From positions 91,202,001-91,266,000 of the forward strand of contig OX597815.1 of NCBI GenBank assembly GCA_951406725.2: DNA of 64,000 nt, written 5' to 3'. The position numbers and the translations under genes were made by a program. Under the pieces are notes generated by a model. It made no database searches and was not told the origin of the DNA. It saw only the letters and a list, made by a program, of their open reading frames with translations. This document shows positions 1,805-57,000 of this stretch, piece after piece; the first letter of the stretch is position 1, and the number at the start of each line of letters is the position of its first letter. Source of the DNA: Octopus vulgaris (Eukaryota).

Positions 1805-1945
1805 TTTAAAATCGTACAATTGTTTTGACACCTTTTTTACATTCATAGTACATTGGTGTGATGTTGTGTTATCAATACCACCATGCAAGGTGTAAGATGT
1901 GCCTCCACGGGTGACTGTTTAGATAAGTTCTTCATAAGATTCTGC
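1805..1945 (-). ncRNA. decayed type I hammerhead ribozyme remnant (PLE pseudo-LTR-like)
   Basis: Minus strand reads gaat-CTTATGA-(~105 nt)-gtc-AAAAC-AATT-GTA-cgatt. Each core half is one substitution from CTGATGA / GAAAC, and stem III is the palindrome ACAATTGT. Confidence 0.4.
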
Positions 1946-3537
1946 TGTCATGACAGTAGGATACAGTAGCGAAAGCATTTCCACTGTATGAGGACATCAA
2001 GTAGCCAATAAACTGAGGATGAACTTTGCATAGCATACTACAAAGTTTCTATCCAAATCTTATTTAATTATATACATTATCATCATTATCATCAATTAAC
2101 ATCCGTTTTCCATGCTGGCATGGGTTGAATGGTTTGACTGAGGTCTGGAGAGCCAGTGGCTGCACCAAGCTCCAATCTGATTTGGCAAAGTTTCTATAGC
2201 TGCATGCCCTTCCTAACGCCAACCACTCCAAGAGTGTAGTGGGTGCTTTTTACGTACCACCAGCATAGGATTTGGAATTGACCACGTTCAGATGGTGCTT
2301 TTACATACCACCAGTCAGGGGGGACCAGCCCCAGCTACAATATTGGTTTTACTTGACTCAACAGGTCTTCTCAAGTATATCATATCGCTCAATGCATCAG
2401 GGGTATTCTTAACATCTCAGAACGTACAAACGAACTAAATGCTGCTAAGCACATCTCATGCAGGCTACCCACACTGCATACCTCACACTATGGCAATTTA
2501 TCTTGTAAATGAGTAACTTTGCTCTTTAGTCCTATACTTTCTTCTTTCTTCTAGCTTGCTCAGGTTTTATACTACTGTTAGTGAGATGATGACCCAATGA
2601 AAATAGATTGAGCAATTCAATCTATATTTCACACATTATTTCATAACAGGCTGTTGGCTGGTAATTTTTACCTTAGATAAGTTTTAGCTTTTATATTTTA
2701 TCATTGAATTGTTTCAGTCATTAGATTGAAGCCATGCTGGGGCACTTCATCAATGTCTTTTGCCAAACAGCTAACTTATGGGGACGTAAACACATCAACA
2801 CCACTTATCAAGAAGTGGTGGAGGACAAACACAACAAACACACACACACACACACACACATACAAACAACGAACTTCTTTCAGTCTTTGTCTACCAAATC
2901 CACTCATAAGCCCAAGGCTATAGTAGAAGACGTGCAGTGGGACTGAACCTGAAATGATGTGGTTGGGAAGCAAGCTTGTTACTACGCAGCCATACCTTGA
3001 CCTATAAGTTGAATAATTTTTATTATTTTATGTGAAAACTAACGAAAGTTGATTATTTGGGTTCATTTATTGTATGATTGACTCTCTTTCCATTCAGTGT
3101 TATGAACAGTCAATGATAAAAGGTGAGATTCTAGTGTTCAACGGTGAGATTCTTGTACTTACCCTGGGATAAGTCCTGAGTCTGAGGCTTTTCCCATTAA
3201 TTTCAGAGGACTGTTCTCCAGTGCTATGAAATTAATCTACTTTTCTAAGTCATGAATTCCAAATCGCTTTTGTTCCATGTTTGCAGTAACTGTGTTCTAA
3301 TTCATCTACTTATATGGTTTGCTCACTAAACTGACCATTTTTCAACATGCAGATGTCCAGTTGCTTTCTAATTTTTGTATATATGCTTATATGTATGTAA
3401 AAACTCTGTTTGCGTATGTGTGTCTGTGTGTATTTACAGATATATACATATAAGCATAAAAAAAACATACATGAATACAGTTACGTATATATGTTGCATC
3501 CATTTATTAATATAAACAGAAACTCACTAACACCTTT

Positions 3538-3576
<39 letters not shown>

Positions 3577-5049
3577 ACACACACACTCACACACACACAG
3601 ATATATACACTATCTCTCACATTCTCTCTCTCACTCTCAGACACACACACACTCACTCACACACACATATTGATAGGCAAGAAATGAATTCAGTTCTGTA
3701 GTATTATATTTGATTATCATACATAAGTCAGGAGCACACAGAATAGCCACGTTTACCATATTTCTTTTAAAGGATTTAATCTATTCCCTGTGTAAAGAAC
3801 TATCATTGTCCTGTCACTTTTGTCAACCTTCAAGTCTCCATAAATACTTTGTGACGATCCATTCTTCCAAAAGTTTGTGTTAATTGTAGCTATTATGTCT
3901 GCAGATAAAAATATATCTGAATTCACTCACATTGACTCATATTCATTTACCTGTCTGCCTTTATACTTAACAGTGAAGATAATACGCTAGCTTTACAGAA
4001 CACTGTTTGCATTTTCCTGAATATTTCTGCCCATAAGAAAAGCACCAAGGTCTTTAATAGCTATACCAAAGTGTAATGGAATAAGATAAAGATTTTGTTT
4101 AAGTTTATCCCCTCCACTTACATATATACTGTCTTAGTTTATGTTCCTATATTCTTGCAATAAAGAACTCATTTAATATTTGAACAACATTTGAGAGAAA
4201 GGGAAGATGAAGTCAGCTGGCTATCAGAAAATATCCATTCTTCGTCTCCAGTGAGATAACCATTTGCAGTGATTGCATATAAAAGTAAGGAGAAGCTAGT
4301 GTAAGTGTTATTTCTATAGCGTCTTATTTATTCCTGAAAGCCATTGGGAGAGATAGTTCTTAATGAACGTAGGCTTTCTGAAACAGTACAACATAGCTTT
4401 AGATAGATTTCACCACAATTGTTTTCTTTCGTAGCTGAAATCCCACTGATTAGTAAAAGCACATTTTGTCTCAACAAATAGCTATTAGATATGCATTGCT
4501 GTAATTATTATAAATACTTTAACATACGCCATTATCATCATCATCATCATCATCAGTATCCACAACATCAGCATCCATATCGTCATGGTCGTTATCATCG
4601 TCGTCATCATCATCATCATCACCACCACCACCAGAAAGAGCAGCAACAATCGCAGCAATACATCAAACATTATCCATATCAACAGTTACCATCATTGTTT
4701 TGAAAATCAAGAACAGCAATAATATCAAAATCATTGATGCTACTGGAAGAATAAAAAGTTATAAACAACTTTCTGAGACCTGTCTTGTTTAACAAATGTA
4801 TATATTTGTACATATGAATATAGACAGATATAGATAGGTGTGTATGTATGTATGTATGTATGTATGTATGTATGTATGCATATGTCATCATTAACAATAT
4901 ATAAATATACGTATGTGTATGTATGTATACTCATATATATAAATATATGTACTCTACAAAAGTGTGAGTAACCTATCAGTTTAATGTAAAATTGTTTTTA
5001 TTATAACTGAACATAAAAACAACCATGTATGTATGTGTGTGTGTGTGTA

Positions 5050-5080
<31 letters not shown>

Positions 5081-5845
5081 ATGTATGTATGTATGTATGT
5101 ATGTATGTATGTATGTATGTATGTATGTATGTATGTATGTACGTACGTGTGTGTGTATGTATGTATGTATGTATGTATGTATGTATGCAGGTAGGTAGGT
5201 AGGTATGTGTGTGTGTGTATGTATGTATGTATGTATGTGTGTATGGATGTATGTATGTATTTATTCATATATATATATATATATATATATCATTATCATC
5301 ATTGCTATCATCAACACATCCAATTCTCCATGTTTGCATGTATTGGACAGGTCCATTCCAAAATGGCATCAGTGTCTCACTGTTTGTTGCATTCCATTTT
5401 CATCATTTTTATCAAGTTCAACAGTCATGAAATAAAAACTGAATTTCTTTCTGACTCACCCTCACTTGCATGCACACACACACATACACACTCACACATA
5501 GAATGAGACAGGTAAGCAATATATACTTTTATCTTTTAATTAAATACATATACAAAACAACGAAGTAATCTAAAAGAAATCAATTTACCTGCTAGAAATA
5601 GCAGTCATATTTTCTTCAAGTAACTTTCAACTTGTCTTTAAAAAAGGGAGGACACATATATGATATGAGTTTGGATCTCCTGCAGATAGGAAAAAGATGG
5701 AATGCTTTTGATCATGGTCTACTCAATCAATACTGGCCTAGGGTTAAACATGAACAACATACATATGCACATACATACATGTATACACATATATAGATAT
5801 ATATATACATGCATGCATACATACATACATACATACATACATACA

Positions 5846-5877
<32 letters not shown>

Positions 5878-5878
<1 letters not shown>

Positions 5879-7163
5879 GAGGGAGTACCCAGAAGCAACT
5901 GGAAACATTCTCTGTAGGATAAGCCCATTATAGTTCAGGCTTCCTCTGAGGTCATTTAATACAACCCTCAGGTATCAGTCTGCCAACCAGTAGTTTGTTT
6001 TGGTTTTGTAGTGCTTCTTCCCTGTTCATCGATGTTTTGCGTTGGCTGAAACGAAGGAACAGCATGCTTCCGTGTGAAATTTTTTCTGTTGGGGAAAACA
6101 GTGGCTGAAACAGTTGTCATGCTTCAGACAGCTTACAAGTATGTTGCCATGAACAAAACACAAGTTTATGAGTGGTTTCCACATTTTAGGAATGGTCACT
6201 TATCACCTGAAGACCAATCTCTTTTAGGGCAACCATCGACCTCCCGAACGAATGAAACATCACAACAATTGATGATCTGATCTTGGAGGACTATCGCCGA
6301 ACAATTGACGTACTTGTCAATATGACTGGTGTGTCCTGGAACCTCTACCAACAAATTTTGAGTGAGGTGTTGAGAATGAAAAAAGTTGCAGCAAAACTCG
6401 TGTCTCGCTTGCTCACGAAAGATCAAAGGCAGTTATGACTGAATGTGTGTTGTGAACTGAAAGAACAGTTGGAAGTTGATCTGAACCTTTTTTTCGAAGG
6501 TTATCACTGGTGGCAAAAGCTGGTGCTACAGCTACGACCTGGAAACGAAGCAGCAATCAATGGAAGCATTCAAAGTCACCACGCTCAAAAACAAGTGCGT
6601 CAAAGTAAAGTACAATGTCAAGACGATGCTGATTTGTTTCATTGGTTCGAAAGGAATTGTCCTTACAGAATTTGCTCCTTCTGGTCAAACTGTTTACCAG
6701 ACATTTTACTTGGAAGTTTTGAAGCATTTATGAGATGCGGTGAGACAAAAAAGCCCCGACCCGTGGCAAAGTGGAGAGTCGTAGTTTCATCACAATGATC
6801 TGCCTGCACACATCGCCTTGAGCGTGCGACAGTTTTGACCCAAAATGGCATAACCCCGCTTACCTACAATCTAAATTTCCCTGATCTTGCTCCCTGCGAC
6901 TTTCTTGGTTCCCCCGAATAAGAAAAGTCTTTAAAGGAAAACATTTTGCAGATGTTGAAGAGGTGAAGAAAAAAAATGACGAAGGTGTTAAAAGGCATCA
7001 CATTGCAAGAGTTCAAGGACTGCTTCGAACAATGGAAATTGCATCTGGACCAACGCGTTGCTTCAAATGGAGAATACTTTGAAGGAGATAAAAGACTAAA
7101 CCTGTAAATCTTAGTGAATGAAATAATATTGCAAATTTCTGGTTTTATTTGGGTACCCCCACA
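5878..7163 (+). mobile_element. full-length decayed mariner transposon (DD34D, irritans-like)
   Basis: ~1.29 kb flanked by TA, with imperfect TIRs (tgagggagtacccagaagc / tttgggtacccccaca). Frameshifted transposase motifs: KTQVYEWF (HTH), VITGGKSW (~ITGDESW), HHNDLPAH (~HDNAPAH) and PDLAPCDF. Confidence 0.9.
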
Positions 7164-7169
7164 TATATA

Positions 7170-7370
7170 CAGTTATAGCCAAAAGTTTGGAACATAGGCC
7201 TGAAAATTAGAATTTTTATATTAAATATTCGAAGTTATATCTAATATATAAATGGGCATTGGATGAGTTATTAGGTCAGTATATCTCTATGTTGTATATT
7301 TGAATCGAATCGTACTTGGTATAACAATTTTAATATTTAAAAAAATTTTCTAAACTTTTGGCCACAACTG
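7170..7370. mobile_element. Tc1/mariner-type MITE
   Basis: TIRs CAGTTATAGCCAAAAGTTT / AAACTTTTGGCCACAACTG, TA on both sides, 201 bp, no ORF. Confidence 0.8.
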
Positions 7371-7896
7371 TATATATATATATATGTATATTTCTTTATT
7401 GCCCACAAGAGGCTAAACATAGAGAGAGAAACAAGGATAGACAAAGGGATTAAGTCGATTACATCGACCCCAGTGTTGTAACGGACGACAATAAAAACAT
7501 ACGGACAGATAGACGATACAAAGACGAACAGGAAAAACCAGGACGGATCATTCGTGGCCTTCTGTTCATCAGTCAAGTTTCCAATTATTATAACAGTTTT
7601 GACCTGTTACATTTGGGACTGTTCAAAGTTGGTTGGCCCCAGAAATCTAAGCTAAGAGCATTAAATTTTTGGAAGACAGCAAGTGAATGTGTATGACAAC
7701 ATAGACAAAAAAAAACGAGAAAAGGGAGAAAATATTACACGATTACAAATACAAGCAACAAATACAAGACAACAGGTGTCTTTCAACTAATAAGGACGTG
7801 TTAATTTGAGCTGGCATGTGGAGTGAAAGCCTTGAGGCACAAACAGAGGAAAGTCAGGAGAATAAGGTGTATGGGCGGCGGTCATGTATATATATA

Positions 7897-8712
7897 TTAG
7901 GTCATCCCATAAGTTTTGTCCGATTTTAACTTTTTTTAAATTGAATGAAATTTAATAGTATTTCAGAATGTCTGATGGAATTAAAAACTATTCTTATGCA
8001 TTTGTGTATATTTAAACCAATTAAATATTATTTTGCAGAATAATAGAACTGAAATTTCTTTGATTAAAACCCTTTCTAGCATGGAAGTATCCAAAGAGCA
8101 TAGAGGCAAATAATGCTTTATGAATACAAAAATGGATACTCTGCAGCTGAAGCGACTCGAAACATACACTCAGTTTATGGGAAAGAACGGTTGAATGAAA
8201 GAACTTGCAGAAGATGGTTTGCAAAATTCAGAAGTGGAGATTTCAGCCTTGAAGATGAAGATCGAACAGGACGTCCAGTTGAGTTTGATAAGCTCCTTGA
8301 GGCATTACTTGAAGAAAATTCTGCATTATCAGTTGAAGAATTGGCAATAAAGCTTAGTTCAAACCATACAACTGTTCATCGTCGTCTTCAACAACTTGGA
8401 AAGGTTCTTAAACTTGGAAAATGGGTGCCTCAGGAATTGTCCGAAAGCAACCGCAAATCCGGAGTTGACATCTGCTCTTCTCTCCATTCTCACGAACTCA
8501 TTTCACCCGTTTAGATAGACTTGTGACTGGTGACAAAAAATGGATCTTCTATCGAAATGTTAAATGTCGTAAACAATAAAAGGGAAAAGGTTCAACCACA
8601 ACCGAGAAGGGAACTTCATGGGAAAAAGGTTCTTCTCTCTATCTATTAATTGTTACCACTTAATGCAACAATCAATGCTCAAGTCTACTGTCAGCAATTA
8701 GAGCGTTTGGGT
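7897..8712 (+). mobile_element. 5' part of a mariner transposon (truncated transposase pseudogene)
   Basis: TA-flanked left end ttaggtcatcccataagt. ORF 8113-8514 has the HTH (ERTCRRWFAKFRSGDFSLEDEDRTGRP) and WVPQEL (WVPHEL motif), followed by VTGDKKWI after a frameshift. No right TIR seen. Confidence 0.9.
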
Positions 8713-8847
8713 TGAAGTGTTTCCAATACATTGATAGAGAGGGAAGATTTGGTATTTATTTTTTTTGTCTACGGGGCATTGGTCTAGGTGCTGGCTAACA
8801 GGAATTTTCCTAGTTGAGGAGTCCCGGATTTGTTATAAATATGTATG

Positions 8848-8894
<47 letters not shown>

Positions 8895-9053
8895 TTCCGT
8901 CTACCAAATCATCTACTCACAAGGCTTTGGTCGGTCCAAGGCTATAGTAGAAGACACTCGCCCACGGTGCCATACAGCGAGACTGAACCCGGAACTATGT
9001 GGTTGGTAGGCAAGTTACTTACCACATAGCCACTCCTGCATCTATATATTTAC

Positions 9054-9093
<40 letters not shown>

Positions 9094-9114
9094 CACATAT
9101 ATATATACATATAT

Positions 9115-9167
<53 letters not shown>

Positions 9168-9542
9168 CTGACAGACAGACAAACATATAGCTGTGCTTTT
9201 ATGGATGTGTAGGCGTAATAGTATGTAGAACTTTTCACAAGGTGATAGACATATATATCCACATTTGGATGACATCACAACTCACATAAATCAGCATTTC
9301 TCCAACATTTCTACTTTTGGTTATAACTGAAGATCACAGGTATCCATTCAGACACATGCAATAAAACATTTGATTATATGGTTGCTTACCTACACATATA
9401 GCATGACTATAATTAAGCGTTGTGCTTGTTAATGTTGATACATGTGAGTCAGCTCATGCATGCATGTGTTTCTGAAAGCATAATAAAGCACAATGTTTAA
9501 ATGATATGATATTAAGGATGACTGTATATGATGTGTGTGTGT

Positions 9543-9575
<33 letters not shown>

Positions 9576-10510: not shown

Positions 10511-11178
10511 AAGGTCGCTCTCTCTCTCTCTCAAGGTGGCTCTCTATGCACATATATCATTTAATGTCCACTTTTCCATGCCTCCATGGATCAGACGAGA
10601 TTTCTTGCAGCAGATTTTCTCCTGGCAGACGGCTTTCCTGTCGCCAACCCTCACCTGTTTCCAAACAAGGTAGCATTTCTCCATGGCCAGACATTTTTTT
10701 TTCATGGAGTACTGGAAACAACCAGCCTCACTTGTAAGACGATGATGCTCATTTGCAACCACCATGTGATGTGTAGACATGGGTACATGCTAATAAAAAC
10801 ACAGACACACATACATACATATACATAATATACATACATTACATACAAACATGTATATATATATAGTCCACAGATAAGATCCAGAGATTCTCAGTATAGC
10901 AAACACTTAGTAGTGCTCAAAAGATTCAAACTTAGACTCCATTGTCTTTACAAGGGATCGATTCTGAAAGGTGAAGAGGGATCAAGTTAAGTGGCAAAAG
11001 AAACCTATAGATTAAGTACCAGACTTTAAAAAATAAGTACTGTGCTTGATACATTCAACTGAAAATTCTTTAAGGTGGTTCTCCAGCATGGCTGCAATCT
11101 AATGACTGAAACAAGTAAAAGATAATGATAAAAGATATGTATATATATATGAATATATGTCCATTTGATTAGTGTAGT

Positions 11179-11285
11179 TTATATCTTTCCTGATGAGATT
11201 GATGCACAGCTGACCATAATTCTTCCTGTCATATGTATGTTCAATGCATCTATCGAAACATATGTAGAAGATAGGAAGATATAAA
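11179..11285 (+). ncRNA. type I hammerhead ribozyme, intact core
   Basis: CTGATGA at 11190-11196. Stem II GATtGATGCA/TGCATCtATC begins with G10.1-C11.1. GAAA at 11255-11258, palindromic stem III ACATATGT, cleavage triplet GUA at 11264-11266, stem I TATCtTTC/GAAGATA. Confidence 0.85.
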
Positions 11286-11471
11286 TGTTTTAATAACATC
11301 CTGAGCGTTTGTCTCCTTTTTCAATTTTTCCAGTTTTCTCCTAAATACGAATCAAACCACACAGAAGTGTGTTCATTGTTTCCTAGGACACTTAAGCAAC
11401 ATTTAGCTATCTTGTAATTATTCCCTTGGATATTTCCTATAAATTGCACACTCATACATACATACATACAT

Positions 11472-11555
<84 letters not shown>

Positions 11556-11702
11556 CATCATCATCATCATTTAGCTTATATTGCTGGTATATTGCAATCC
11601 AAATAACCAGGAGTAAAACTCAATATACATATGCTTCACAACAAAATGTTAGTCAAGTACAAAACAGTAATAATAAAATGAGATAACAAAAGAATAAACA
11701 AT

Positions 11703-11760
11703 TATCTTATGTTTCTGCTATAACACCTGAGTAACACCTGATAGCTTCATCAGAGCTTCA
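11703..11760 (-). ncRNA. decayed hammerhead ribozyme
   Basis: Minus strand: gaagct-CTGATGA-a-GCTAT-(loop)-ATAGC-a-GAAAC-at-aagat. Core and stem II are present; the GU of the cleavage triplet is missing. Confidence 0.55.
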
Positions 11761-12497
11761 AATATGAAATACAATTTATTTGAGTAAAGAATTACATTTA
11801 TGCATACTCACAGGAAAAAGCATTAGCAATGAGAAAGCAAACGTGTATGTGGGGTATTTCAGCTGAGTTATATTAGTAATTCAAAGGCCAACTTTGTTAC
11901 ATTCTGTGTCTTACTGAATTTCTCTCAGAATTCATTAAGTGTATACATGTTCATGGAGTGCTCAGCTATTTGCATACTAATTTCATGAGCAAGCTGTTCT
12001 ATTGATCAGATCAGCTGAAGCACCCATTTTAACCAACAGGGTGTCAGTTTATTTACATATATAAGGATGACCTCAGGACACTGAACCTTATGGAGGAGAT
12101 GACAAAGGACCAAGAAATTTGGTGCCTTGCTGTACTCAAGAATTGTTAAGGCTGCTCCCTCTGATTAATAGGATTGACCTGCAAGAGTTCTATGCTGGTG
12201 CCACATAAAAGCACCTGTGCCAACGTCATGTAAGAATACTCATGCCAGTGCAACATTAAAAGCACCCACTGTAAAGTGGTTGATGTTAGAAAGGGTATCC
12301 AGTTGTAGAAATCAAGCTAAATCAGAATGAAACCTAGTGCAGTGCTCCAGCTTGCCAACTCTGGTCAAACCATCCAACCCCTACCAGTATGGAAAAAGAG
12401 ATGCTAAAGGATGATGATGATGATGATGATATATATATATATAGAATCGAATGTAGAAATACATAAATCCAGAGGTGAAGCACACTCTAAGATGTAA

Positions 12498-12610
12498 TAT
12501 TATAGTGGGGTAGGCCAGTTTACGGGGTCTGAGGATATGCTGTAAGGCTAAACCCCTTATGAGCAAGAAACCCAGGGTAACCCTATAAACCAGCCTACCC
12601 CACTATAACA
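12498..12610 (+). ncRNA. type I hammerhead ribozyme with ~30-bp stem I
   Basis: CTGAGGA at 12529-12535. Stem II TGCT..TAAGG/CCTTA..AGCA, GAAA at 12567-12570, stem III ACCC-A-GGGT, GUA at 12577-12579. Stem I TTATAGTGGGGTAGGCcaGTTTAcGGGGT pairs with ACCCTaTAAACcaGCCTACCCCACTATAA. Confidence 0.8.
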
Positions 12611-14344
12611 TATATATATATATATATACAACCTTTATTTATGTTGTGGCACAGAAGCATAAAAGTATTCAGTACAGTTTATTTCAAGCATGTGAAAAAC
12701 ACTATATATGTTTATCTGTGTGAGATAAATATGGATTACATGTCTAAACCACAACTTTATTTGGTCAGTTAATGATACATGAGCAAAGTCATGGTTCAGG
12801 GATATAACTCTTGTTTATTTTACACAAATTAACATATACATATGTGTGTACATGTATGTTTGTTATTATTTTGGATGCTATTCAATCTAATCACAAAACG
12901 GTTTTGTATATAAGCGTGTTATATATATGACATTTATAAATGCTTTATCATATTCGATCTTGTTCTAGAATAATATTCTGGCAATACTCTCATATACTCA
13001 ACTGATTCTTATTCATGCTACATAGCTTTTAGTGTTAAAATTTGTCAGAGCTATGTCTACAACTGGACAATATCGTCTGTTTACTTGCAGCAACTTTGTT
13101 AAATTTGGTCGGTCGTATGGTGAACTACTCGTGAGCATGATGAAGTAACTAATAAATCCTAAACTGGTTAATCTGCTGCCAACCATGCAACATGATGAAT
13201 ACATCTAGTGTCGTAACCCCAATATTGCTAGTCCAAAGCAAAACTAAATATATTTTTAAGCCTGTACATGTTAATCAAGAATGCATATTCTTTTACATAC
13301 TGAACTGTTTTGTATGTATATTTGCATGGAGAATGTATGTCTTTATATCAGTGCAGACTTGGTTGTGTAGTTACAAAGTCAATTTGCAACTATGTGGTTT
13401 CAGGTTCAGCCCCACTGCACAGTGCCTAGTGAGTGAATTAGGCTGATAGAAACTGATAAAACTAATGTATATCATTTTCATCATCATCCAAATCATCATT
13501 GTATTATTGTCTGCTTTTCTAAGCTTGCATGAATTGGACAGAATTTGCTGAGGTAGATTTTCTATAGCTGAATCCCCTTCTTGTCATCAGTAGGAGAAGA
13601 TTCCCAAGGGTCAATGTTCTGGGAAAAAACAACTGTGAATATTGGTTAGGGTGGAGCTGAGTAGGTCGGGTGCAAAAAGAGTGGCATGAGACAGAAAGAC
13701 AAGTTGGTCAGGATGTCTGCATTAAATGGAAACAAGGCTAGCTTGTTCCAAATAACAGAGGCTTTTATATCATCATCATCATCATCACCATCATAATCAT
13801 CTTTTAACATCCATCTTCCATGCTGGCATTGGCCAGATGGCTTGACAGGAGCCAATGGTTTAGAAGACTGTGTCATGCTCTGATGTGGCACCAGCACTAG
13901 TGCAATCACTCTGTAGCTTGCAAAACTAAGATGATCCTCTGTGGTTGAGTGGGGCTACATTAAAAAGGGAGATAGCTTTATGTTAGGTGATGAAAATAAG
14001 AGTATGGAGAAAGGGGCTAAAACAGATTTCTTGCTGTAGAGGATATATATATGGTTGCTTACATCACACAAGAATGGGAGGGAATAATCAGCATGAAGCT
14101 GAAAACGTTTGGAGTAATCAATGTGGAGCTAATGAAAAGATGCATGTTATCAATTCTGAGATTCTCACAATTGCTAGTCTACCACAAAATGGTTAAAATA
14201 GGAACAGCTCAACCCACCAAACAGTGACAAGGCCAAGTTTAGTTCCCCTCCTGTTGGGAACAAGCTCCCTAGAAAAACTAGAAATAAGCATTTGGTAAAT
14301 ATGGTTCATTGTAATTCAAAAGAGGTAAAACAAAATTGAAGGAT

Positions 14345-34019: not shown

Positions 34020-35400
34020 CCCTCCCCTACCACATCCATGACACTAACCATACTCTCCATCATTTTAACCCTTTCTCCTCTTCTGGCCCTTTAAATTTCT
34101 GTTCACTCTTGATATCAAAAGTTTATATACGGTTACCCCACACAACGAAGGGCTTTTTGCACTCAAACACTTTATAGACCTTCGGCCTGACCCTCAACCT
34201 GACACCTCCACACTTCTTCATCTGGCCGAACTTGTTCTCTTCTTCAACTGTTTCTCATTCATGAGGGATTTTTACCAACACTCTTGAGAGTGGCCATGGG
34301 AACAAGAATGGGCCCCAACTATGCAAACCTGTTTGTTAGATATGTTGAGGCTTGAATATTCTCACAATTCCCTGGTCCCACTCTCAAACTATATGGTCAT
34401 TATATCAATGACTGTATCAGTGTTATTTCACTCTCCTGTGAACAACTAGACCCCTTCTTCTCTTTTGTGCAATCCTATCCTGCCCTCGAATTCTCCTGCA
34501 CTATCTCTGACTCTTCCATCAAATTTCTCCACAGTTCTGTCAGCATACACCATTCCACTCTCACTACTTCCATCCACTACAAACACACTGAATCACACCC
34601 CTAACTTAACTTCTCCTCCTCCTACTCTACCCACATCTAGCTCTCCATCCCCTACTCCCAATTCCTCCGTCTGAGACTTAGTCTCATCTCATGGCTTGCC
34701 ACTTCATCCTACATGGATATTCCTTCACTACTATCCACACTGTCCTTGCCAGGGTACGATCTGTGGACTGTGCCTCTGCTCTTTCTCCTTACACCTGCCC
34801 AGCTATTGCCTTTCTCCCGTTTCTCCCTCACCTACCACCCCTCCACCCTGCCCCTCCAACTCACCATTCTCCGAGCCTTCCAGTGACTCCAGTGCAACCC
34901 CTTCTCCTAGCACATCTTCCTTAACCTACCCCTTCCCTCCTTCAAATGAGCCCATAACCTGCTTGACCTCCTGAACCACAGATTTTTCCCTAACCCCACT
35001 TCCTAGCCTGGCTCACTCCCCTGCTCCTACCCATGCTGTCACACCTGCTCCTACCTCTCCAACACCACCATCCACACAGGCACCCATCATCATCCCTATC
35101 ACATCACCAACTATTTTACCTGCACTTCTCCTGCTCTCTCTGTTGTTCCTTGTATGTCAGTCAAATGGGACACCACTTGGCTGACTGGTTTGTGGAGCAC
35201 CTCCAAGACATCTGACTTGGCAATAACAGTCTAGTCTCACACCATTTCCGCTCTACCAGTCATTCATTACAATATCTGTCTGTGTTTGGATTATCATTGC
35301 ACAGGAACCATCTAGACTCCTGACTTCACTGTGAACAGGAATTAATCTTCTCTCTTTACTCCTTTGCACCATATGGGCTCAACTCACCTCCTCTCTTCAC
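34020..35400 (+). pseudogene. Penelope-like element (Neptune-type) RT + GIY-YIG remnant
   Basis: DIKSLYTVTPHNEGL (34111), LLHLAELVL, VAMGTRMGPNYANLF and HYIND (~RYIDD). A Cys-rich linker PCSYPCCHTC follows, then CSLCCSLYVSQMGHHLADWFVEHL (~CxxC..YIGETGR.L..RF.EH) and terminal PYGLN. Confidence 0.88.
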
Positions 35401-35789: not shown

Positions 35790-37294
35790 TGCCAGAGTCA
35801 CTCACCCTTATTCACACACACACACACACTTACACACTCATGCACACCATTCTCCACATACACACACGAACATCGAATGTATATATTTGTGTGTATGTGT
35901 CTATGATTGTTCCTCCATCATCACTTCAACAACCGATGTTGGTGTGTTTACATCTTCATAACTTAGCAGTTTCGCAAAAGAGACTGATAGATTAAGTAAC
36001 AGGCTTATAAAGAATAAGTCCATGGGGTGATTTCTTCAACTAAAAAGGCAGTGTTCCAGCATGGCCACAGTCAAAATGACTGAAACAAGTTAAAGAATAA
36101 AAGAATTAATTACGCTAAACGATGATGATGATGATGATGATGGTCATTTCCATTGATTTCATCATGTGAGTGTTTGAAAGAAAGGATTTTAAAAATTATT
36201 CTTAAATAAATGAAGCTGCATCTATTTGCAATGGATACATGGATGCAATTTGAGTCCGAGTATGGATTTTGCTATGAAGTCACAATGAGGACACTGAATA
36301 TTTTGATTTTGGCTAAGACTGGACCAATGTGTCCATTGATTGCCAAATTTATTGTTCTGTTTCTTCAACATAAATTGTTTTGATGCATCATGACACATTT
36401 TTTTACACCATACAGATTGATCTAGGCAGTGTGTGCATGTGTGTGTGTGTGTGATCATCAACATTTTCCTATGGTGTGATCATCATCCATTTCCTATGCT
36501 GGCATGTATATATTTTTTCTGTATCAGGATCTGAAATGTAAGATCTTTTTCTACCCTGATGATGGAGGCTCAATTTGGTTATTTGCTTCTTTTACTGTCT
36601 CCATATTTTGGTGAACTACACCTATCAACATTATGATTGATCTCCAAGCCCCCAGAAACAGTTGTTCAACTTATAGCACCTTACTTTTTCCCATTTGATT
36701 TTCCCTGTCATTTGTACTCAATATAAGTTCGATCTATTAATATAAATATCTATATATTTATACTTAAATATTCATCATCTAAAAATGTGCAGTCTTTGCT
36801 TTCTTTCTGTTTGCATGTATTCATATATATATATATATTGTATATCAAACCCAAGCTGTTATATTTAAATTGTTTATCTGCATAATTGCCTCTATATATA
36901 TGTGTGTATGTATACACCTATAAAAAGAAATACTGTGTAAAACAACAAAATAAATACATCCATGGTAATTAAAAGTTCAAATGAATAATAGGTCATTAAA
37001 CTCCAACATGTTATAACATTGCAGTGAATCTAGTGGAAGAAGATTGCGTGTGTATACATAATCAGCTAAAACAACTCATAAGAGCAACGTATATTCAGAA
37101 TAAACAGCAAAAAGCATCAATTTCATTGATCATTATTTAATTACTTTCAATAGCTGGTTCATTACTTAAAAAACATCATTAACTTTGTAATTACATAATT
37201 AAGATAATTAATATATATTAATTTAAAGTAATATTTATCCAAAAGCATCAAGAATACTGTTGGTAATTCTGGCCATAAACCATATGTAAAATTT

Positions 37295-38849: not shown

Positions 38850-39430
38850 TAGACTACACATGACCTGTTGGATCACTGGGAAACTCTGAGTTTTCCAGCA
38901 ACAGAGTTTTGTTTCATGGATTTCTTTTCTTTTCCACGTTATTTCACATGCTTTTAATGAATGTGACATCGAAATCATGTGTAAACAGCTCCTTTCCCCA
39001 GATTTGTCTGTTATTTCTTGCACACTCTGCTACCACGTAACAGGTATTTCAGGTCCTTTATCACAAAGAGCTGTTACATGGTAGCAGGGTGAGCTAGAAA
39101 TAGCAGCCAAATCTTTGGAGGTGAGACATTGAATGCACTCGTAAAAATCCTATGGAAAAAAACTCGTATTTTTTCATTCTGATGTCACTGTGTCAAATAG
39201 AAAGATAAAAGTTTCTTTCCTTTCAGGATGAAGATTATTTTCAGAATATTTCCCCATTACATACCGTTTTGTGTATTTATACCCGAAAACCTCTAATATC
39301 TTTAAAACTACTTGTCCGATTTACACGAAACTTGTTTTATTCCATTCCTATTAACATTTCAGGGTAAACTTACTTCATATTATTTTTCCATTATGTGCCA
39401 GTTTGGTCGGGTAACATTGCAAGCAAGTAA
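38850..39430. mobile_element. probable Helentron-associated non-autonomous element
   Basis: Between (TA)n tracts; contains the DINE/HINE-like motif AACTACTTGTCCGATTTACACGAAACTT and an internal inverted repeat at 39025-39090. Confidence 0.4.
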
Positions 39431-48969: not shown

Positions 48970-50433
48970 TAACTGAATTTTGGTAGACAGATGTTGGTAA
49001 CCCATCAGAAGGGCCATTCCGAATTTTGGTTGGATGATGGCTTAAATTTGTCGTATGGTTTAACAGCACTACCTGGCCCTTAGATTTGATAACTTTCATC
49101 TTTCCTACCCACAAGTCACAGACATCCTGAAAATAGTAATGGATGCTACTTTTTCTTCTCTGACCAACCCAATTAAAAGAGAATGTTTAAGACAGTAAGG
49201 TGTGGTTGGATGCAAATGTGTGTGCCTGTATGTGTGTACATGTATGCGTGTGCATTTATTTGTGTGTATCTGTTTGTCTTTGTATAGGTTGAGCAACTAT
49301 GCATAGATTCCTTGGTAAACTTAAACCTGTCATTCAGTCGGTTACAACAACAAAGATTCCAGCTGATCTGATCAATGGAACGACCAGCTCATGAAATTAA
49401 CGTGCAAGTGGCTGAGCACTCCACAGACACACATACCATTAATGTAGTTCTCAGGGAGATTCAGCGTAACACAAAATATGACAAGTCTGGCCCTTTGAAA
49501 TACGGTTACTATTCATTTTTGCCAGCTGTGAAAAAAAAAATTGTCTTGCTCAAGGACCCAATGTACCACCAGGAACTAAACTCATGACCTTATAATTGTG
49601 AGCCAAAGACTTCTAACCACTGGGCCACATACCTTCCATGGTATGGTGGTAATAGAATCTATTTTTATAAAATATATGCAGCTTCAACTAGTCTTGCCAC
49701 TTCCATCATATGTCAATGTCAGCATGATTTACCATTCTCTCCATTCCCACATCCTACAACCATATCATGATAAACCTACCTATACCCTACTTACCACCAT
49801 TACCATGTTACACGCATTCTACAACACCCAATCTCCAATCCAGCTATGATCAGCTACCATCAATTGCCTATAAAACATGGAGATTAAAGATCTCTTATTA
49901 AAATTACTTACAAAACAAAGGCCACTCCAAAGAGATAATTTGTTTTGTTCTAAATTCAAATATGTTTACAAAGAAACTACCGGATCAAGCAGCATTTGCT
50001 TTTGTTTTGTTCATCTAATTTTAGTTCTATAATTATTTACTTTTTTTTTTAAGTAGTTCAATAACTTTTATGACAGAGAAATCCTCATGCTATTAGAAAA
50101 ATAAAATTTAAGGAGTGATATTTCTGATATTTCAAATTGAATTACATCAATATCTGTTTTTATTGGTTAATTATGGGTTGGATTATTAATTATTACATCA
50201 ATGCAATCAAATATTGATATTCTCGTAAACAAGCGCATTTTCTCACCCTCCCTACTTCTCTCTTCCTGTCTCTTGTCTTTCTCTTTCTCTATTTTATATG
50301 TTCCCTTTCTCTGTTTTATATCTTACACTTTGTAAGTGCATGTGCTTACTATATATATATATATACACATATGTATAAACGTATGTCAGGTCAAAAATAG
50401 TCTGCAGGTCAGGTCAAACAAATACTGCTATTG

Positions 50434-50488
50434 GTACCATGTAACCCAGGACTCCTGTTTGTGGTTGAGTGGTTGGCAACTAATCTGG
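50434..50488 (+). ncRNA. decayed HDV-like ribozyme candidate
   Basis: Order P1 (ACCATG) - P2 (CCAG) - P3 (GAC) - L3 TCCT - P3' GTT - P1' TGTGGT - GA - short P4 - CTAAT - P2' CTGG. L3 is short and P1.1 imperfect. Confidence 0.35.
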
Positions 50489-50955
50489 CTTTCCCATTTG
50501 CCTTTCTTGGTGTGGAGGGCACTGTGGATGCTCTGCTGAACTACAAACAAGACCAGTCAAAGGATGGATAAGCTAAACATAATCCAATGGCCTTTCAAAG
50601 GGGTGCCTAAGGTCTTAGACTGACCATCTTGTCTAAGACAATAGCTATGGAAACTCTAATGGAAGATATACTGTAGTCTCTCACAAACGATGTGGCATAG
50701 AGCAAAAAGAAGATACATATGTATGTATGCATATAAAGACCACACACATGTGAATGAGTATTCATGAGTATATATAGATACATATATATCAATGTGTATC
50801 TATATATCAATGTACATATAAGCATTTTTACATATGTATATATACATACATATCATCAGTGTATCATTTACCTGGAAAAGAAACACACTCTAAAGGATAG
50901 AGCAGTAATGTATTTTCATACAGTTAAATATATGTCTGGTTTCACAATATATACT

Positions 50956-51022
50956 GTTTCACATCCATAAAGTGTATCCATGAAGTGTATCCATGAAGCT
51001 TAACACTTTATGGATGTGAAAC
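50956..51022. repeat. perfect 20-bp inverted repeat
   Basis: GTTTCACATCCATAAAGTGT (50956-50975) / ACACTTTATGGATGTGAAAC (51003-51022); the spacer carries ATCCATGAAG twice. Confidence 0.9.
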
Positions 51023-51058
51023 CATTGGTCATTCTATGACTGGATATATATTTTACTG

Positions 51059-51123
<65 letters not shown>

Positions 51124-51456
51124 TGTATAATGGACTCTCCCATTGTTAAACGATGTATGAGGATTTGGCAGTTTCTTGCTGAACAACCACACAGGCGATT
51201 TGTTTATAGTAATCAAATGTTTGTGTTCACATAAGCTCGCTCTCTCCATCAAATCGACATTACCTGTACAGGTGCACCATGTGCCACATGTCAGATGACA
51301 AAATGATTGCAGAGCACTGTGAAATGAAGTGCTTTGCTCAAGAACACAATACAATGCCTGATCTGGGAATTGAAACCACAAACTCACAATCATGAGTGCA
51401 ACACCCTACCCACTAAGCCATGTGCCTTCACACATACACATACATGCACAGACACA

Positions 51457-51512
<56 letters not shown>

Positions 51513-51702
51513 TATATAGACAGACAGAGACACAGAGAGAGGAGTAAATGTAAGAACAAGCAAGTTAGGCAAGTCAATATACAAAAAATATTAATTACAT
51601 ATAAAACAAAAAATGTACATATGTATACACATAGAAAAAAGTCTGACATACACAGAATAGAAATGATATCAGAAATTAAAGGGGTTGAGTAGGAGTTTTA
51701 CG

Positions 51703-52065
51703 AGTTCAACAGCTGTTTCTAGGGGCTTAGTGTTCCAAAATAATGATTGTAACTTGTGGCTGTGTGGTAAGTAGCTTGTTTACCAACCACATGGTTCCGG
51801 GTTCAGTCCCACTGCGTGGCACCTTGAGCAAGTGTCTTCTACTATAGCCTCAGGCCGACCAAAGCCTTGTGACCGTTACTTAGCGGTTCGGCAAAAGAGA
51901 TCGATAGAATAAGTATTGGGCTTACAAAAGAATAAGTCCCAGGGTCGAGTTGCTCGATTAAAGGCGGTGCTCCAGCATAGCTGCAGTCAAATGAGTGAAA
52001 CAAGTAAAAGAGTAAAAGAGAGAGAGTATCATCGGATAATACCAGCCCCTGTCTTCAGGGAAGAA
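51703..52065 (-). ncRNA. hammerhead ribozyme interrupted by a SINE in loop II
   Basis: Minus strand: ttcc-CTGAAGA-c-AGGGGCT-[loop + SINE]-AGCCCCT-a-GAAAC-AGCT-GTT-gaa. Perfect 7-bp stem II and palindromic stem III ACAGCTGT; stem I is weak. Confidence 0.7.
51756..52026 (+). mobile_element. SINE family A, internally deleted
   Basis: Head joined directly to the 3' half (CCTTGTGA|CCGTTACTTAGCGG); the central microsatellite is missing. Confidence 0.85.
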
Positions 52066-52680
52066 TTTTACATTTGAGGTGTTGACAGAATGGAGAACTA
52101 AGGAGAACTAAGGAGAACTAAGAAAGAGTAGTTGGTGGAGTGTTTAGATAGAGGTTAGTGGGAGGAGAAAACAGATTTTGGGGTTAGGGTTAATAAAGAG
52201 GCTAGTGATAGTAATAGAGGAGGGATGGTTTAGGTAGTATGGGATTGATGACCTTTGTGTTAGTTTGTATAAACACTATAAAGTTCAAGGTTTAGATAGT
52301 GAAAAGGGGATGGCTATTATTTGAAGGAAATGAGTTGACTGGTTCAGTAGCTGAGTGGGGTGAGAACGTGGTCAAAAGTAATTGTTAGTGGGACAAAGAA
52401 AATGAGTTGGTATTGGAGGGATGGGTGAGGTGTTATGGTAAAGAGTGGAGTATGAAATTGAATAGAGGGGTGTGAGTCGAGGTAGATAGAGGGGATAGAA
52501 GGAGTAGAGGTAGTTAGAGAGGTAGAAGTAAATTTAGTTTTCAAAGGAGTGGGGTATTAAGTGCTTTTTGAGACTGGGGAGGGTGGGGAGGCTAAAAGTG
52601 ATGTGTAAAGTAGTTGATTTGAGGAATTTGGAAGAAACTGAAGATGTGTGTATGAGAAAGAGTAAGAGGGGTAGGTTTAG

Positions 52681-53230
52681 CATTTTTTAAGTAGAAGGCT
52701 GCAAAGCTGACTTTGTCTTAGTTTAAGGTTTTGGGGGATGGAAATTTATTATGGAATTATGTAGATTTGGCAAAGTGTGAAAGATGAGTAGTACCTATGT
52801 TTATAAGAATAAATAACATCAGAGAATCTATTAAATAATGAGGAGTTTTGAAGGCAAAGAATGGTTAATGATACTTTTAGACATAACATACACTTGCAGA
52901 TGTTTGCATTTTATAGGGGAGCTTTGCTTACTATGGACCAGGATAGGGTGTATGGAATATTTTGAGATTTGAGGTTGTGTATATACATTGCTAAGAAGGT
53001 TGATAATTTAGAAGTGTAGGTTATGTCTAAAAGAATCATTAATTATTCTTCACCATCATAACTCCTCATTACTTAATTGATTCTCTGATGTTATTTATTC
53101 TTGTAAACACAGGTACTATTCATCTTTCATGCACTTCACCAAATCTTTATAATCTCATAATAAGTTTCCATACCCCAAAAGCCTTAAACTAAGATAAAGT
53201 CGGTCTTGCAACCTACTACTTAAAAACACA
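52681..53230. mobile_element. inverted duplication of a PLE GIY-YIG C-terminus
   Basis: 52681-52895 is the diverged reverse complement of 53012-53230. The plus copy reads KCRLCLKESLIILHHHNSSLLN*FSDVIYSCKHR, matching the CxLCLxE...LLN...CxH end of PLE endonucleases. Confidence 0.75.
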
Positions 53231-53289
53231 GTCAAAAAGATAGTTAAGACAGCTTGCCTCTGATGGAATTCAGGAGTTATGGATAGTAA

Positions 53290-55185
53290 TATTTCACCAT
53301 TTTTGTGGCTTATCAACATCATGTACTGGAATCAAATCACCAGTCTATGACTATATATAAATAGTGGAAAAACTATTTGCTGGTGTACCACGGTGATGCA
53401 CACATAAGATTAAATTCAATAACAAATTAAAAACAGTGCTAGTGTTATAAGCATTATCAACTGCACATATTCAATGTATGTGTTTTGTTTGCCAGTTTGC
53501 TGCAAAATAGCTTTTGGAAAGATGATTCCATTAAAACACCTGAAAGTCATAGACAAGCAAGACAACTCACCTCCATTCAAATTCAAAAGTGATAGATTGA
53601 TTATAAAAAGGCTTATGACAATGCTCCACACAGCTGGCTCTTGGAGTGTCTGAGGTTACTTGGAGTCATTAAGAAGATAAACAACATTTTGGAGAAATCA
53701 ATGAGAGCATGAGAAGTAGAACTGACATTTGTGAAGGAGTCACTAAGCAATGCATGGGCATTTTTCAACAAGACTTGCTCTCTCTATTACTCTTCATCAT
53801 TGTGCTAATTGCCCTGATAAGTAAATCTAGGCCTGCCTATGAGTTTACCAAATCCAAGATGAGAATAAATCACCTACTTCATACAGATGACCTCAATCTG
53901 CATACAAAGATTGAGACAGACCTAGACTCTTTAGTACAAGGAGTAAGTGTAATGAATAAAGATATTACAAAGTAGTTTGGGGTAAATAAATGTGCAATTC
54001 TAATTATGAGGGTAAACTATGATTGCATAATATTACCACAAGACAACATCATTATATCACTGGAATAATGAGGGATACAAATATCTATAAGTGCTGCTAG
54101 ATAAGAAAATGGAAAGAGAAATGAGAGAGTAAGTCATTAAAGAGTACAATTAGGAAGGTACTTGAAACTAAATTAAATGGTAGACACATGATTAAAGCCA
54201 TAAGCCATAAATGCATGGGCATTGCCCATATTGAGATACTCTGATCCCTTTTTGAAATGGGCAAAGATCAAGCTGCAGAACTTGGAGAGAAGAACTAGAA
54301 AGTTATTCACAATGCACAACACATTTCACTCTCAAATCAATACTGATCAACTGTACCTACTAAGAAAGAAAGGTGGCAGGGGATTATTAAATGCAGAAGA
54401 CACTGTTAATACTACAATACTGGGTCTGAAATATTATATTGTACAGAGTAAAGAAAGAACACTATAGGCAGACAGAGATTCCTAAAAAGTAACTGAAACA
54501 GTAGGAAAAGCCACCGAGAAAAGGAAGAATAACAGCAAACAGATGGAAAGAAATAGAACTACATGGCCAATTCATGCAACAAACTGAGAATGCCAGAAGT
54601 AAAGAGCAATGGTTCTGGTTGTTAGATGGGAACTTAGAATGAGAGACAGAACTGCTAATTATAATTGCTCAAGAACAAGTCCTTAGAATAAACCTGATAA
54701 ATGCAAAGATCAACAAAACTCACACAGCAAATGTAGAATCTACAGGAAAGAAGAAAAAACTATCACTCACTTTTCAAGTAAGCACAGTTTACCAGCACAA
54801 ATGCTATCATAAAAGCAGACATGATTGTGTTGGCAAAAGAGTGCATTGGAATGTTAACCAAGTGTGTAGCTTCAAAACAACAGAACAGTGGTATGAGCAC
54901 AAACTAATGGCTGTGATAGAAAAATAAGAACTACAAGATCTTGTGGGATTTCCCCACAAAGACTGACCATATTATTGAAGCAAGAAGGCCAGATATGATG
55001 ACGAAGGACAAAATAAACAAAAAGTGTAAGATCATAGATTTTGAAATTTTCAATATTAAAAATTGAAAAAATTGAGAAATATCAGGATCTAGACATGATG
55101 CTAAGGAAACTCTGGAAGACAAAAACAATAGTTATTCCTGTTGTAATTGGTGCACTTGGCACAACACCCAGAATGCTATATAAAA
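53290..55185 (+). pseudogene. RLE-type LINE (R4/Dong-like) RT + zinc knuckle + endonuclease remnant
   Basis: DYKKAYD, GIFQQDLLSLLLF, INHLLHTDDL, DQLYLLRKKGGRGL, IIAQEQVL, RHDCVGKRVHW, KILWDF..TDHIIEARRPDM and VIPVVIGALG; many stops. Confidence 0.88.
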
Positions 55186-55211
55186 GTTGTATATGTATAT
55201 ATATATATATA

Positions 55212-55588
55212 TACTAGCAGTATCGCCCGGCGTTGCTCAGGTTTGTAATGGAAATAACTATAAAGCATTTTTAGAGAGTTATAGCCAAAAAATAGCAAAA
55301 AAATGGGAAGAAAATGATGGTAAATTTTTTTGAGAGTTAAAAAAGGTCGAGTTGCGTTCCCTAGACAGTCTGTGGTTTGTGTTTCTGATTCTCGACCCCA
55401 TGTCGAATTTATCGATTTTTTTCAGAACTGGGGGAACTTTTCAAAATTTTCGCTGCGTTAGTTTTGAATTATGACATTGGGCTATGTGTGTGTCAAGTTT
55501 CATCAGAATCAGTTGAAAGCCGTGGTCAGGGTGAGGGTACAACCAAACAGACACACAGAAACACACACAGACAAACTGCCGTTTATAT

Positions 55589-55592
<4 letters not shown>
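55212..55592 (+). mobile_element. Helentron-associated non-autonomous element (HINE/DINE-like)
   Basis: 5' TACTAGCAGTATCGCCCGGCGTTGCTC, internal CAAGTTTCATCAGAATC, ACAG/ACAC microsatellite, 3' AAACTGCCGTTTATATAG; inserted in (TA)n. Confidence 0.7.
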
Positions 55593-55619
<27 letters not shown>

Positions 55620-55623
<4 letters not shown>

Positions 55624-55905
55624 TATTGAGCAAAAACACCTAAAGCTCCACGAGGCTCCGGCAGGGGATGGTGGTGATCCCTGCTGTACTCTCTCACCAC
55701 AACTTTCTCTCACTCTTACTTCCTGTTTCTGTATTTCAAAGGGCCTTGTCACTCTCTGTGTCACGCTGAATATCCTCGAGAACTACGTTAAGGGTACACG
55801 TGTCTGTGGAGTGCTCAGCCACTTGCACGTTAATTTCACGAGCAGGCTGTTCCATTGATTCGGATCAACCGGAACCCTCGTCGTCGTAACCGACGGAGTA
55901 CTTCC
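55620..55905 (+). mobile_element. SINE-like repeat family D
   Basis: The segment AAGGGTACACGTGTCTGTGGAGTGCTCAGCCACTTGCACGTTAATTTCACGAGC recurs at ~11930-12040(+), 29840-29930(+) and 49330-49520(-). Confidence 0.7.
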
Positions 55906-56174
55906 ATTCCATCATATATATATATATATAAATTAGAAAAAAACACCTTTTATCAATTCAAAATGAACAATAAATTACACCATCTAGAAAATTACATATA
56001 ATAGAAATATTAAAATTAAAATAACAATAATATACCGAAGATTAAGTAAATTGCAAAAAAACGTATATATTCTATCAAATATATACGTTTTTCTGCAATA
56101 TATATGCATACACACACACACACACACACTACACACCTACACACACAAACTCACACACACACACACACACAGAT

Positions 56175-56400
56175 GGTTGAAAAAGTTTATTTCCTGTGCT
56201 CTCCTAGTGTTTATTGCTCCTGCACATGTGCTACGACAGTTTGCTTTGTCTGTTACTCTCCCTGTGGTTCTACTGCACTTCTTGTATACCCAAAGTTTTC
56301 ACTGGATACTCTATATGGAATTTCTAACTCCTCTTCTCTGACATACTGAACAATGCCATTTCTCTGGTGGAAGCAGAATCCTGTCTGTTTTCCTACTAAC
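56175..56400 (-). pseudogene. RTE LINE fragment (Cys-rich segment)
   Basis: Minus strand KWHCSVCQRRGVRNSI*SIQ*KLWVYKKCS...CAGAI, homologous to 23480-23625 of the long RTE. Confidence 0.75.
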
Positions 56401-56892
56401 TAAAACTTTGGTCATATGTAAAAATTTTGAAATTTTGATTCTTTTAACGTTTTCATTTTATATTGCTTCATTGTTTTTTTTTTAAGATATTCTTTTATTC
56501 TTTTACACATTTCAGTCATTTGACTAGAGCCATACTGGAGCACCACCTTAAAGGATTTTTAGTTGAAGAAATCAACCCCAGGACTTATTCTTTGTAAGCC
56601 TAGTACTTATTCTATTGGTTTCTTTTGCTGGACCGCTAAGTTACTGGGACATAAACACACCAACGTCGGTTGTCAAGCAATGGTGGGGTAACAAACAATG
56701 ACACACACACATAAGTATATATATATATCATATGGTTAATTGTGCCTATTTATGTATTCATGTACATATATAGGTGTATATATTTGCTTATGTATATATA
56801 TGTGTATCTATGTATGGATATATACTTATATATATATTAAATTGTATGTGTATCCTGTTTCATGTATATATTTATATTTTGAAAGTACTTTA

Positions 56893-57000
56893 TAATCTCT
56901 GAGGAGGCCCCATTTTTAACTGCCTACAACTTCAATATAATTGACAAGTATAGGCACAAAAAAAACTTTTTTCCATATACTGAAACATCTTTAAGTGATT
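56893..57000 (+). ncRNA. decayed hammerhead ribozyme
   Basis: aatct-CTGAGGA (56899-56905)...GAAAC (56982-56986)-atct-tta-agtgatt, with an internal TGCCTA/TAGGCA hairpin. The base of stem II and stem III are eroded. Confidence 0.5.

Follow-up and report, generated by a model that had tools for sequence, protein, structure and literature searches.

We analysed a 64,000-nucleotide (nt) stretch of the Octopus vulgaris genome (contig OX597815.1, positions 91,202,001 to 91,266,000; hereafter the window), in which a preliminary description had noted six type I hammerhead ribozyme motifs, two of them with intact cores, in short units without open reading frames (ORFs). Our analysis indicates that five of these units are the 3' ends of different families of Hydra-clade Penelope-like elements (PLEs) and that the sixth is likely one as well, each probably left when reverse transcription started at a nicked (TA)n tract a short way downstream of the hammerhead and ended prematurely. 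We give this reading, which is made from sequence, a probability of roughly 0.88. Its directly observed parts are the membership of the units in repeat families, the anatomy of the hammerheads, the fixed 3' and ragged 5' ends of the copies, the 5' inversions, the (TA)n flanks and the continuity with a C-terminal GIY-YIG endonuclease bearing Hydra motifs.

Six dispersed families of type I hammerheads

Inspection of the window sequence found hammerhead remains at 6/6 sites on the strands originally given, and we name the corresponding families A (12498 unit), B (11179), C (51703), D (11703), E (1805) and F (56893). The set was real, if incomplete: a seventh motif, family H, had been overlooked at 36556-36666. 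It has 1,126 first-look candidates genome-wide, helix II ends in common with C and an unrelated loop. The two intact cores lie on the plus strand at 11190 (CUGAUGA...GAAACAUAUGUA, family B) and 12529 (CUGAGGA...GAAACCCAGGGUA, family A). The family C unit, running from 52058 to 51708 on the minus strand, also retains both core boxes and is interrupted by a repeat of ~274 nt, resembling a short interspersed element (SINE), at 51754-52027; the apparently very long loop II of this unit is due to that insertion. Compared with their own families, the D unit (11753, minus) is missing helix III and some of helix II through deletions, the E unit (1911 to 1815, minus) has mutated core boxes, and the F unit (56899, plus) has a helix II deletion and a mutated helix III.

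Searches over the whole assembly (2.8 Gb, 227 contigs) placed each of the six units in a separate dispersed repeat family, with 42-61 scored matches and, as lower bounds, 246-926 first-look candidates apiece. Between families we found no similarity in the hammerhead region beyond matches of 9-23 nt, in line with the earlier proposal of independent PLE-type hammerhead families lying within microsatellites. In alignments of 51 (A), 30 (B), 19 (C), 43 (D), 29 (E) and 29 (F) copies, the family majority shows both core boxes, a paired helix II and, as had been noted for single units, a palindromic helix III in 6/6 families. These majorities have the CUGANGA core, GAAA, UH and helices I-III of a type I hammerhead. 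The long helix II that had been described also holds at the family level, where the core boxes are separated by 31 (A), 58 (B), 66 (C), 54 (D), 77 (E) and 97 (F) nt; the extreme length seen at 51703 does not. Helix I is just 2-4 bp in C, D and F, and the predicted cleavage site is GUU in C, H and a young family, Y, described below.

Could the motifs be chance matches in AT-rich, repeat-rich DNA? Within the window alone, the statistics are thin. A strict descriptor gave one match (11190) and none in each of 10 shuffles, and a looser one recovered only the same full motif, with 0/100 shuffles reaching one. The looser descriptor, which was composed after the data had been seen, also found 14 half-motifs, including one site counted twice and trivial A/T palindromes, against a shuffle mean of 5.7, and 0/100 shuffles reached 14. 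Rfam returned no hammerhead family among the 150 of 271 window rows listed, nor among 10/10 rows for 11100-12700; the length of helix II explains why the motifs escape Rfam and descriptors that allow a short spacer. It is at the family level that the evidence becomes firm. In addition to the 6/6 family majorities, one half-motif has 24,567 exact copies genome-wide compared to 328 for a reversed-pattern control, and 15/40 sampled half-motif sites passed a full hammerhead test compared to 0/40 controls, the tested sites being 40 of the first 43 listed, all on one contig, rather than a random sample. The reversed pattern was used because an alternative control palindrome was itself enriched (1,705 versus 765), probably as the helix III of another hammerhead. 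Together these results refute a chance origin.

We also considered whether the intact copies might be host-recruited ribozymes that cut host transcripts at this locus, since two window copies keep both core and helices. All 11 core positions match the majority in 34/51 (A), 11/30 (B), 9/19 (C), 10/43 (D), 10/29 (E) and 24/29 (F) copies. Among these copies, which were chosen by similarity, conservation of core versus flanks is slightly higher in A (0.97/0.92), E (0.93/0.88) and F (0.98/0.94), with no excess in B (0.91/0.94), C (0.91/0.90) or D (0.88/0.88), and therefore gives no clear sign of selection after insertion. The counts for A and B show that intact cores are common by age alone. Moreover, judging by published tests of PLE hammerheads, in which monomers were poor cleavers and dimers weak ones (PMC4209133), helix III is too short for a monomer to cut efficiently. 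Host recruitment is thus very improbable, and we take the units to be remains of mobile elements.

Links to Penelope-like ORFs and the Hydra clade

The preliminary description took the units to lack ORFs, which does not hold for the families: five of the six connect to endonuclease sequence. The link is clearest in family A, where the end of a GIY-YIG endonuclease lies ~200 nt from the core in 16/25 loci found with an upstream query (L061-L085). In the family A endonuclease, the linker and the YIG region are separated by a long insert of low-complexity triplets (L066:590-1300, L072:1900-2450). Among 29 family B loci, ORF pieces lie upstream in three in sense and in three inverted (linking loci L041/L281, L044 and L049), and in L281 reverse transcriptase, linker and endonuclease follow in order. 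Family C has three sense and two inverted ORF pieces among 19 loci. One of the sense loci is the window copy, which itself encodes an endonuclease end; what had been taken for a separate PLE remnant at 52681 therefore belongs to the 51703 unit, as the ORF end of the same copy. For family E, 1/20 upstream-query loci carries an ORF link (L231/L276), with an intervening untranslated region (UTR) that is shared with other copies, and for family F the link is an inverted endonuclease piece adjoining a UTR of >2.4 kb, again in 1/20 loci (L219/L271). Two further candidate ORF links for E, L192 and L233, were ruled out and are read as nested insertions of other Hydra elements; at L192:1931-2480 a relative of the published Hydra-1_Obim interrupts the hammerhead of a family E copy, having inserted with a 5' inversion. 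Compared pairwise, the endonuclease pieces from the five linked families (A, B, C, E, F) share 18-38% identity (after a misframed Y row was dropped from the matrix). A genome-wide search of the kind the preliminary description had called for thus found units that are multi-copy and, in five families, tied to PLE ORFs.

We assigned these elements to the Hydra clade from motifs and profile matches, rather than from a phylogeny that includes named references. Published marks of the clade are RWK, DKT, CxCx5C, CxxC and CxH (PMC8557442), and an earlier assignment to Neptune was dropped on this account. A protein search of the genome uncovered family Y, a young Hydra family with many near-identical copies across many contigs and stop-free ORFs of 717 amino acids. 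One Y element of about 2.6 kb (L196:1800-4400, minus) has all five marks. In 120 homologues each motif is kept by 90-119/120, and the linker and endonuclease marks by 116-119/120. Of the window families, B and F show CxCx5C, A and B show CxxC with CxH, and C and F show CxH, the motifs being partly decayed elsewhere; RWK and DKT were seen in the relative L196, the N-termini of the six window families not having been recovered. Identity to the L196 protein is about 31-61% for pieces of A, 34-42% for B and 25% for C. Pfam gave no family at E≤1 for three fragments or for the intact 717-residue protein, which had 848 matches with no name on any of the 120 listed; no longer homologues of a 139-residue fragment were found. 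Family Y also forms tandem and inverted arrays in L197 and L199-L204.

The window families agree in most respects with published accounts of the Hydra clade (Craig et al. 2021, PMC8557442), which includes Hydra-1_Obim of Octopus bimaculoides. Both have a C-terminal endonuclease with CxCx5C, with CxxC and CxH around the conserved residues E and N, and with no CCHH, (TA)n targets, a type I hammerhead near the 3' end with an AC...GU palindromic helix III, heavy 5' truncation, an inverted 5' copy and a tail. Sites ending in U are found in 10/26 published rows, so that GUU in C, H and Y is not new. The hammerhead region of Hydra-1_Obim was matched by eye in L192, and by hammerhead sequence none of the six families is Hydra-1_Obim (PMC8557442). 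In contrast to the 26 published rows, in which the boxes are up to about 25 nt apart and the core is CUGA throughout, the span here is 31-97 nt and the core carries U4C in D, Y and a further family, G. The UTRs are also longer, at 0.75 to >2.4 kb, whereas published elements total <3 kb (PMC8557442); the UTR lengths of B, C, E and F imply longer elements, the L196 element measuring about 2.6 kb.

The minimal hammerheads described in PLE pseudo-long terminal repeats of metazoans (Cervera and de la Pena 2014, PMC4209133) are similar in occurring as thousands of dissimilar, mostly single motifs per genome, in opposite-strand pairs, and with an unpaired base at the start of helix II and a palindromic helix III. 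Here, however, helix III consists of a palindromic insert of 6-7 nt, and helix II has a much greater length. Single and opposite-strand hammerheads were interpreted there as truncated PLEs; the consulted portion of that paper names no cephalopod (PMC4209133). We regard the window motifs as real hammerheads of a likely known kind of element in new families, truncated PLE ends with hammerheads having been known since 2014 and an octopus Hydra family with a hammerhead since 2021.

A further decayed PLE ORF in the window, at 34020, had been proposed as a possible mobiliser. It is of another clade, probably of Neptune or Nematis type to judge by its CX4CxxC linker, without a Hydra profile match or any link to the units.

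Ends of copies, insertion and tandem repeats

We then compared the ends of 137 copies recovered with the first queries, measuring 5' ends against single diverged references. The 5' ends vary in position between the core interior and a point 1.5 kb upstream, and in 53/137 copies an inverted piece of the element adjoins the 5' end, as it does in the window copies of A, C and E. In contrast, the 3' ends are fixed. Family A ends in (TA)n 21-37 nt past the cut site in 27/30 copies, and family F ends 186-206 nt past it in 13/20 copies and at 369-374 nt in five more. A TA tract lies within about 400 nt downstream in 30/30 (A), 19/20 (F), 22/29 (B), 15/19 (C), 16/20 (D) and 13/19 (E) copies; these counts are without a control and TA tracts are common in the genome, the tight spacing in A and F being the informative part. 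The 5' inversion also accounts for the apparent long helix I of the 12498 unit, which is created by the inverted piece and is not part of the ribozyme. MITE-like terminal inverted repeats at this unit were likewise ruled out, the inverted arm being absent or of another length in other copies.

Twin priming in L1 elements yields inversions of this general kind. In L032, L046, L055, L093 and L271 we observed 5' inversions that resemble it, the inverted part being an internal ORF piece rather than the 3' end. Furthermore, the 3' UTRs of B, E and F contain long degenerate TA/TG/AAT tracts common to copies (L041, L147, L161, L271, L276), which look as if the target microsatellite had been captured into the element.

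From known PLE biology, we expect that the element's endonuclease would nick (TA)n and its reverse transcriptase would copy its own RNA from the 3' region. A PLE protein has been found to nick AT-rich DNA and to start reverse transcription at internal sites that define an optional tail, and for an anole PLE cleavage was not needed for insertion in vitro (PMC11167929). With the hammerhead 30-200 nt from the 3' start, most short insertions would retain it, which would explain why dispersed units without ORFs are seen. The two hammerheads of a full or tandem transcript are predicted to pair through the palindromic helix III and to cut weakly, perhaps with help from protein, while single genomic copies are likely largely inert and decay by ordinary mutation, deletion and SINE insertion.

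Several observations weigh against this account. For E and for F a single locus supplies the ORF link, and the 3' UTR of >2.4 kb that F would require is long for Hydra elements, given their published total of <3 kb (PMC8557442). We found a full-length element for none of the six families. Same-strand ORF pieces lie, unexplained, downstream of the hammerhead in three B loci and one E locus, and 5' ends cluster near -36 in B, -51 in E and -43 in C, as artefacts or as real preferred stops. Finally, family D showed no adjoining ORF in 70 loci from three queries and four extended loci (one further search gave two matches), and its upstream sequence fades into TG/TA-rich DNA about 250 nt from the core.

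Family D in particular raises the question of whether one or more units might be monomers of old non-autonomous tandem hammerhead repeats, or non-LTR retrozymes (LTR, long terminal repeat), that Hydra PLE proteins mobilised in trans. Monomers can make up most of a retrozyme family (bioRxiv 2026.07.22.740005), and young repeats of this type, described below, do exist in the genome. However, the missing ORF link of D is weak evidence, because microsatellite-like stretches in the UTRs of B, E and F stall such upstream walks too, and 64 D locus matches contain no tandem pair. Across the six families, 272 locus matches (not deduplicated) contain no same-strand pair closer than 1.4 kb and only two pairs at all, 1.4 and 1.5 kb apart, and among the 137 copies a second same-strand match within 1.5 kb occurs once, which we read as the two parts of the SINE-interrupted window copy. 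With A, B, C, E and F connected to endonuclease sequence, we consider a retrozyme origin improbable for the window units and prefer truncated PLE ends.

Elsewhere in the genome the situation is different. We examined seven loci, L363-L369, chosen from lists of CCGA/CTGA patterns. At L363:3369-6141 (C1:60458868-60461640) six hammerheads with 493-nt spacing, 99.5% identical, lie between TA tracts with an inverted 5' piece. L364-L367 and L369 have tandem hammerhead periods of 493-561 nt, and L368 no clear array; the arrays of L363-L367 and L369 lie between TA tracts and are 97-99.5% identical, most with inversions. A Hydra profile had no match in 6/7 of these loci, and its one match, in L366, falls beyond the repeat. 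For the 493-nt family, whose core is U4C, we counted 2,243 first-look candidates. A contig join in sequencing-run data that returns after 493 nt at L363 fits tandem DNA as well as a circle. Non-LTR retrozymes, for which an origin from PLEs has been proposed (Cervera and de la Pena 2020, PMC7229834; Li, Clavereau and Pollet 2026, bioRxiv 2026.07.22.740005), would match these ORF-less families; the window units, by contrast, do not occur in tandem, and an ORF is linked to five of them. The idea in the preliminary description that PLEs move non-autonomous hammerhead repeats is therefore supported for this genome through these other families, and not for five of its own six units.

U4C cores, abundance and other features of the window

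The hammerhead of family Y has a CCGAAGA core in 4/4 distinct sequences, with a GUU site, and contigs from four sequencing runs show no other core letter. In 43 family D copies, positions 4-5 of the core read TG in 23, CA in 9 and CG in 8, the pattern of a decaying CpG, whereas CA occurs there in at most one copy in the other five families; the family D core is thus probably U4C in origin. Family G is a very abundant short-helix hammerhead, often CCGAUGA (L196:151-300; 16/40 sites in L323-L362). With one pattern searched genome-wide, the CCGA form had 4,591 matches compared to 1,567 for controls, and the CTGA form 13,903 compared to 1,549. In a viroid, U4C lowers activity in vitro and infection is still possible (PMC3088659).

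The box spans of 31-97 nt, the recurrent U4C core, present even in the young family Y with intact ORFs, and the scale are apparently undescribed. The literature searched gave no account of these families, of U4C in the hammerheads of PLEs or of retrozymes in cephalopods. Lunse et al. 2017 reportedly dealt with dimer-cleaving PLE hammerhead variants, and U4C or long-helix forms may be among those listed there. An annotation of octopus repeats from 2026 counts 31 recently active Penelope-like families; the words 'hammerhead', 'ribozyme' and 'Hydra' do not occur in its main text, and its repeat library may already contain these families (PMC13282606).

We see about an even chance that the genome harbours a very large undescribed Hydra-clade radiation, comprising dozens of families and tens of thousands of hammerheads that go unrecognised by standard descriptors owing to long helix II, with still-mobile families with a weakened U4C core, and young ORF-less tandem repeats whose Hydra-like (TA)n targets and 5' inversions are a direct footprint of Hydra proteins moving retrozymes. 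If so, this would amount to a natural experiment on whether PLE hammerheads must cut at all. Young intact elements occur in this genome together with young ORF-less tandem repeats, some with a core change reported to lower activity, and make the role of PLE hammerheads testable with natural variants. Ribozyme counts in cephalopods are probably too low, as hammerheads with long helix II escape Rfam and short-spacer descriptors.

Table 1 Hammerhead units and PLE remains in the window (positions in the window).
Feature	Position	Strand	Details
Family E: 3' end of Hydra-type PLE with decayed hammerhead	1763..1932	-	core box 1911-1905 mutated; 3' box and ACAATTGT at 1827-1815; end at TA tract near 1755
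Family E: inverted piece of the element's 3' tail (5' inversion)	1961..2069	+	
Family B: 5'-truncated 3' end, intact-core hammerhead, long tail	11156..11445	+	core 11190-11196; GAAA 11255; ACATATGT; predicted cut after A11266
Family D: 3' end, hammerhead with two deletions	11602..11857 (ends approximate)	-	core 11753-11747; helix III lost at 11715-11706
Family A: inverted copy of 3' end and tail, joined to forward copy at GGGGT overlap	12444..12528	-	
Family A: intact-core hammerhead, ends in (TA)n	12518..12608	+	core 12529-12535; GAAA 12567; ACCCAGGGT; predicted cut after A12579
Separate decayed PLE ORF	34020..35400 (ends approximate)	+	CX4CxxC linker; no Hydra profile match; no link to the six units
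Family H: seventh hammerhead, relative of C	36531..36800 (ends approximate)	+	core 36556-36562; 3' box 36655-36666; GUU site
Family C: 1.5-kb copy with endonuclease ORF end (52773-53009), 3' UTR and hammerhead	51538..53013	-	core 52058-52052; GAAA 51719; ACAGCTGT; GUU site at 51708
SINE-like abundant repeat within loop II of family C hammerhead	51754..52027	+	
Family C: inverted duplicate of 52684-52895 (5' inversion)	53012..53226	+	
Family F: 3' end, decayed hammerhead, then (TA)n	56733..57190	+	core 56899-56905; 3' box 56982-56993

Other parts of the window also drew our attention. The region 50830-51040 is likely another PLE end, with a CTGATGA core at 50859 on the minus strand, a stretch resembling the inverted tail of family A and a GAA-ACCATTGGT-C half-motif at 51018. 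At 38850-38900 a GAA-ACTCTGAGT-T half-motif directly follows (TA)n, possibly an insertion truncated inside the hammerhead. On the plus strand, 53560-55150 holds a decayed non-LTR retrotransposon ORF with reverse transcriptase and restriction-like endonuclease motifs in its translation, and 8104-8514 contains what we take, from its motif, to be a mariner-like transposase fragment. Lastly, a GC-rich tandem array of 61 nt in 11 copies lies at 57466-58164 within a common interspersed repeat.

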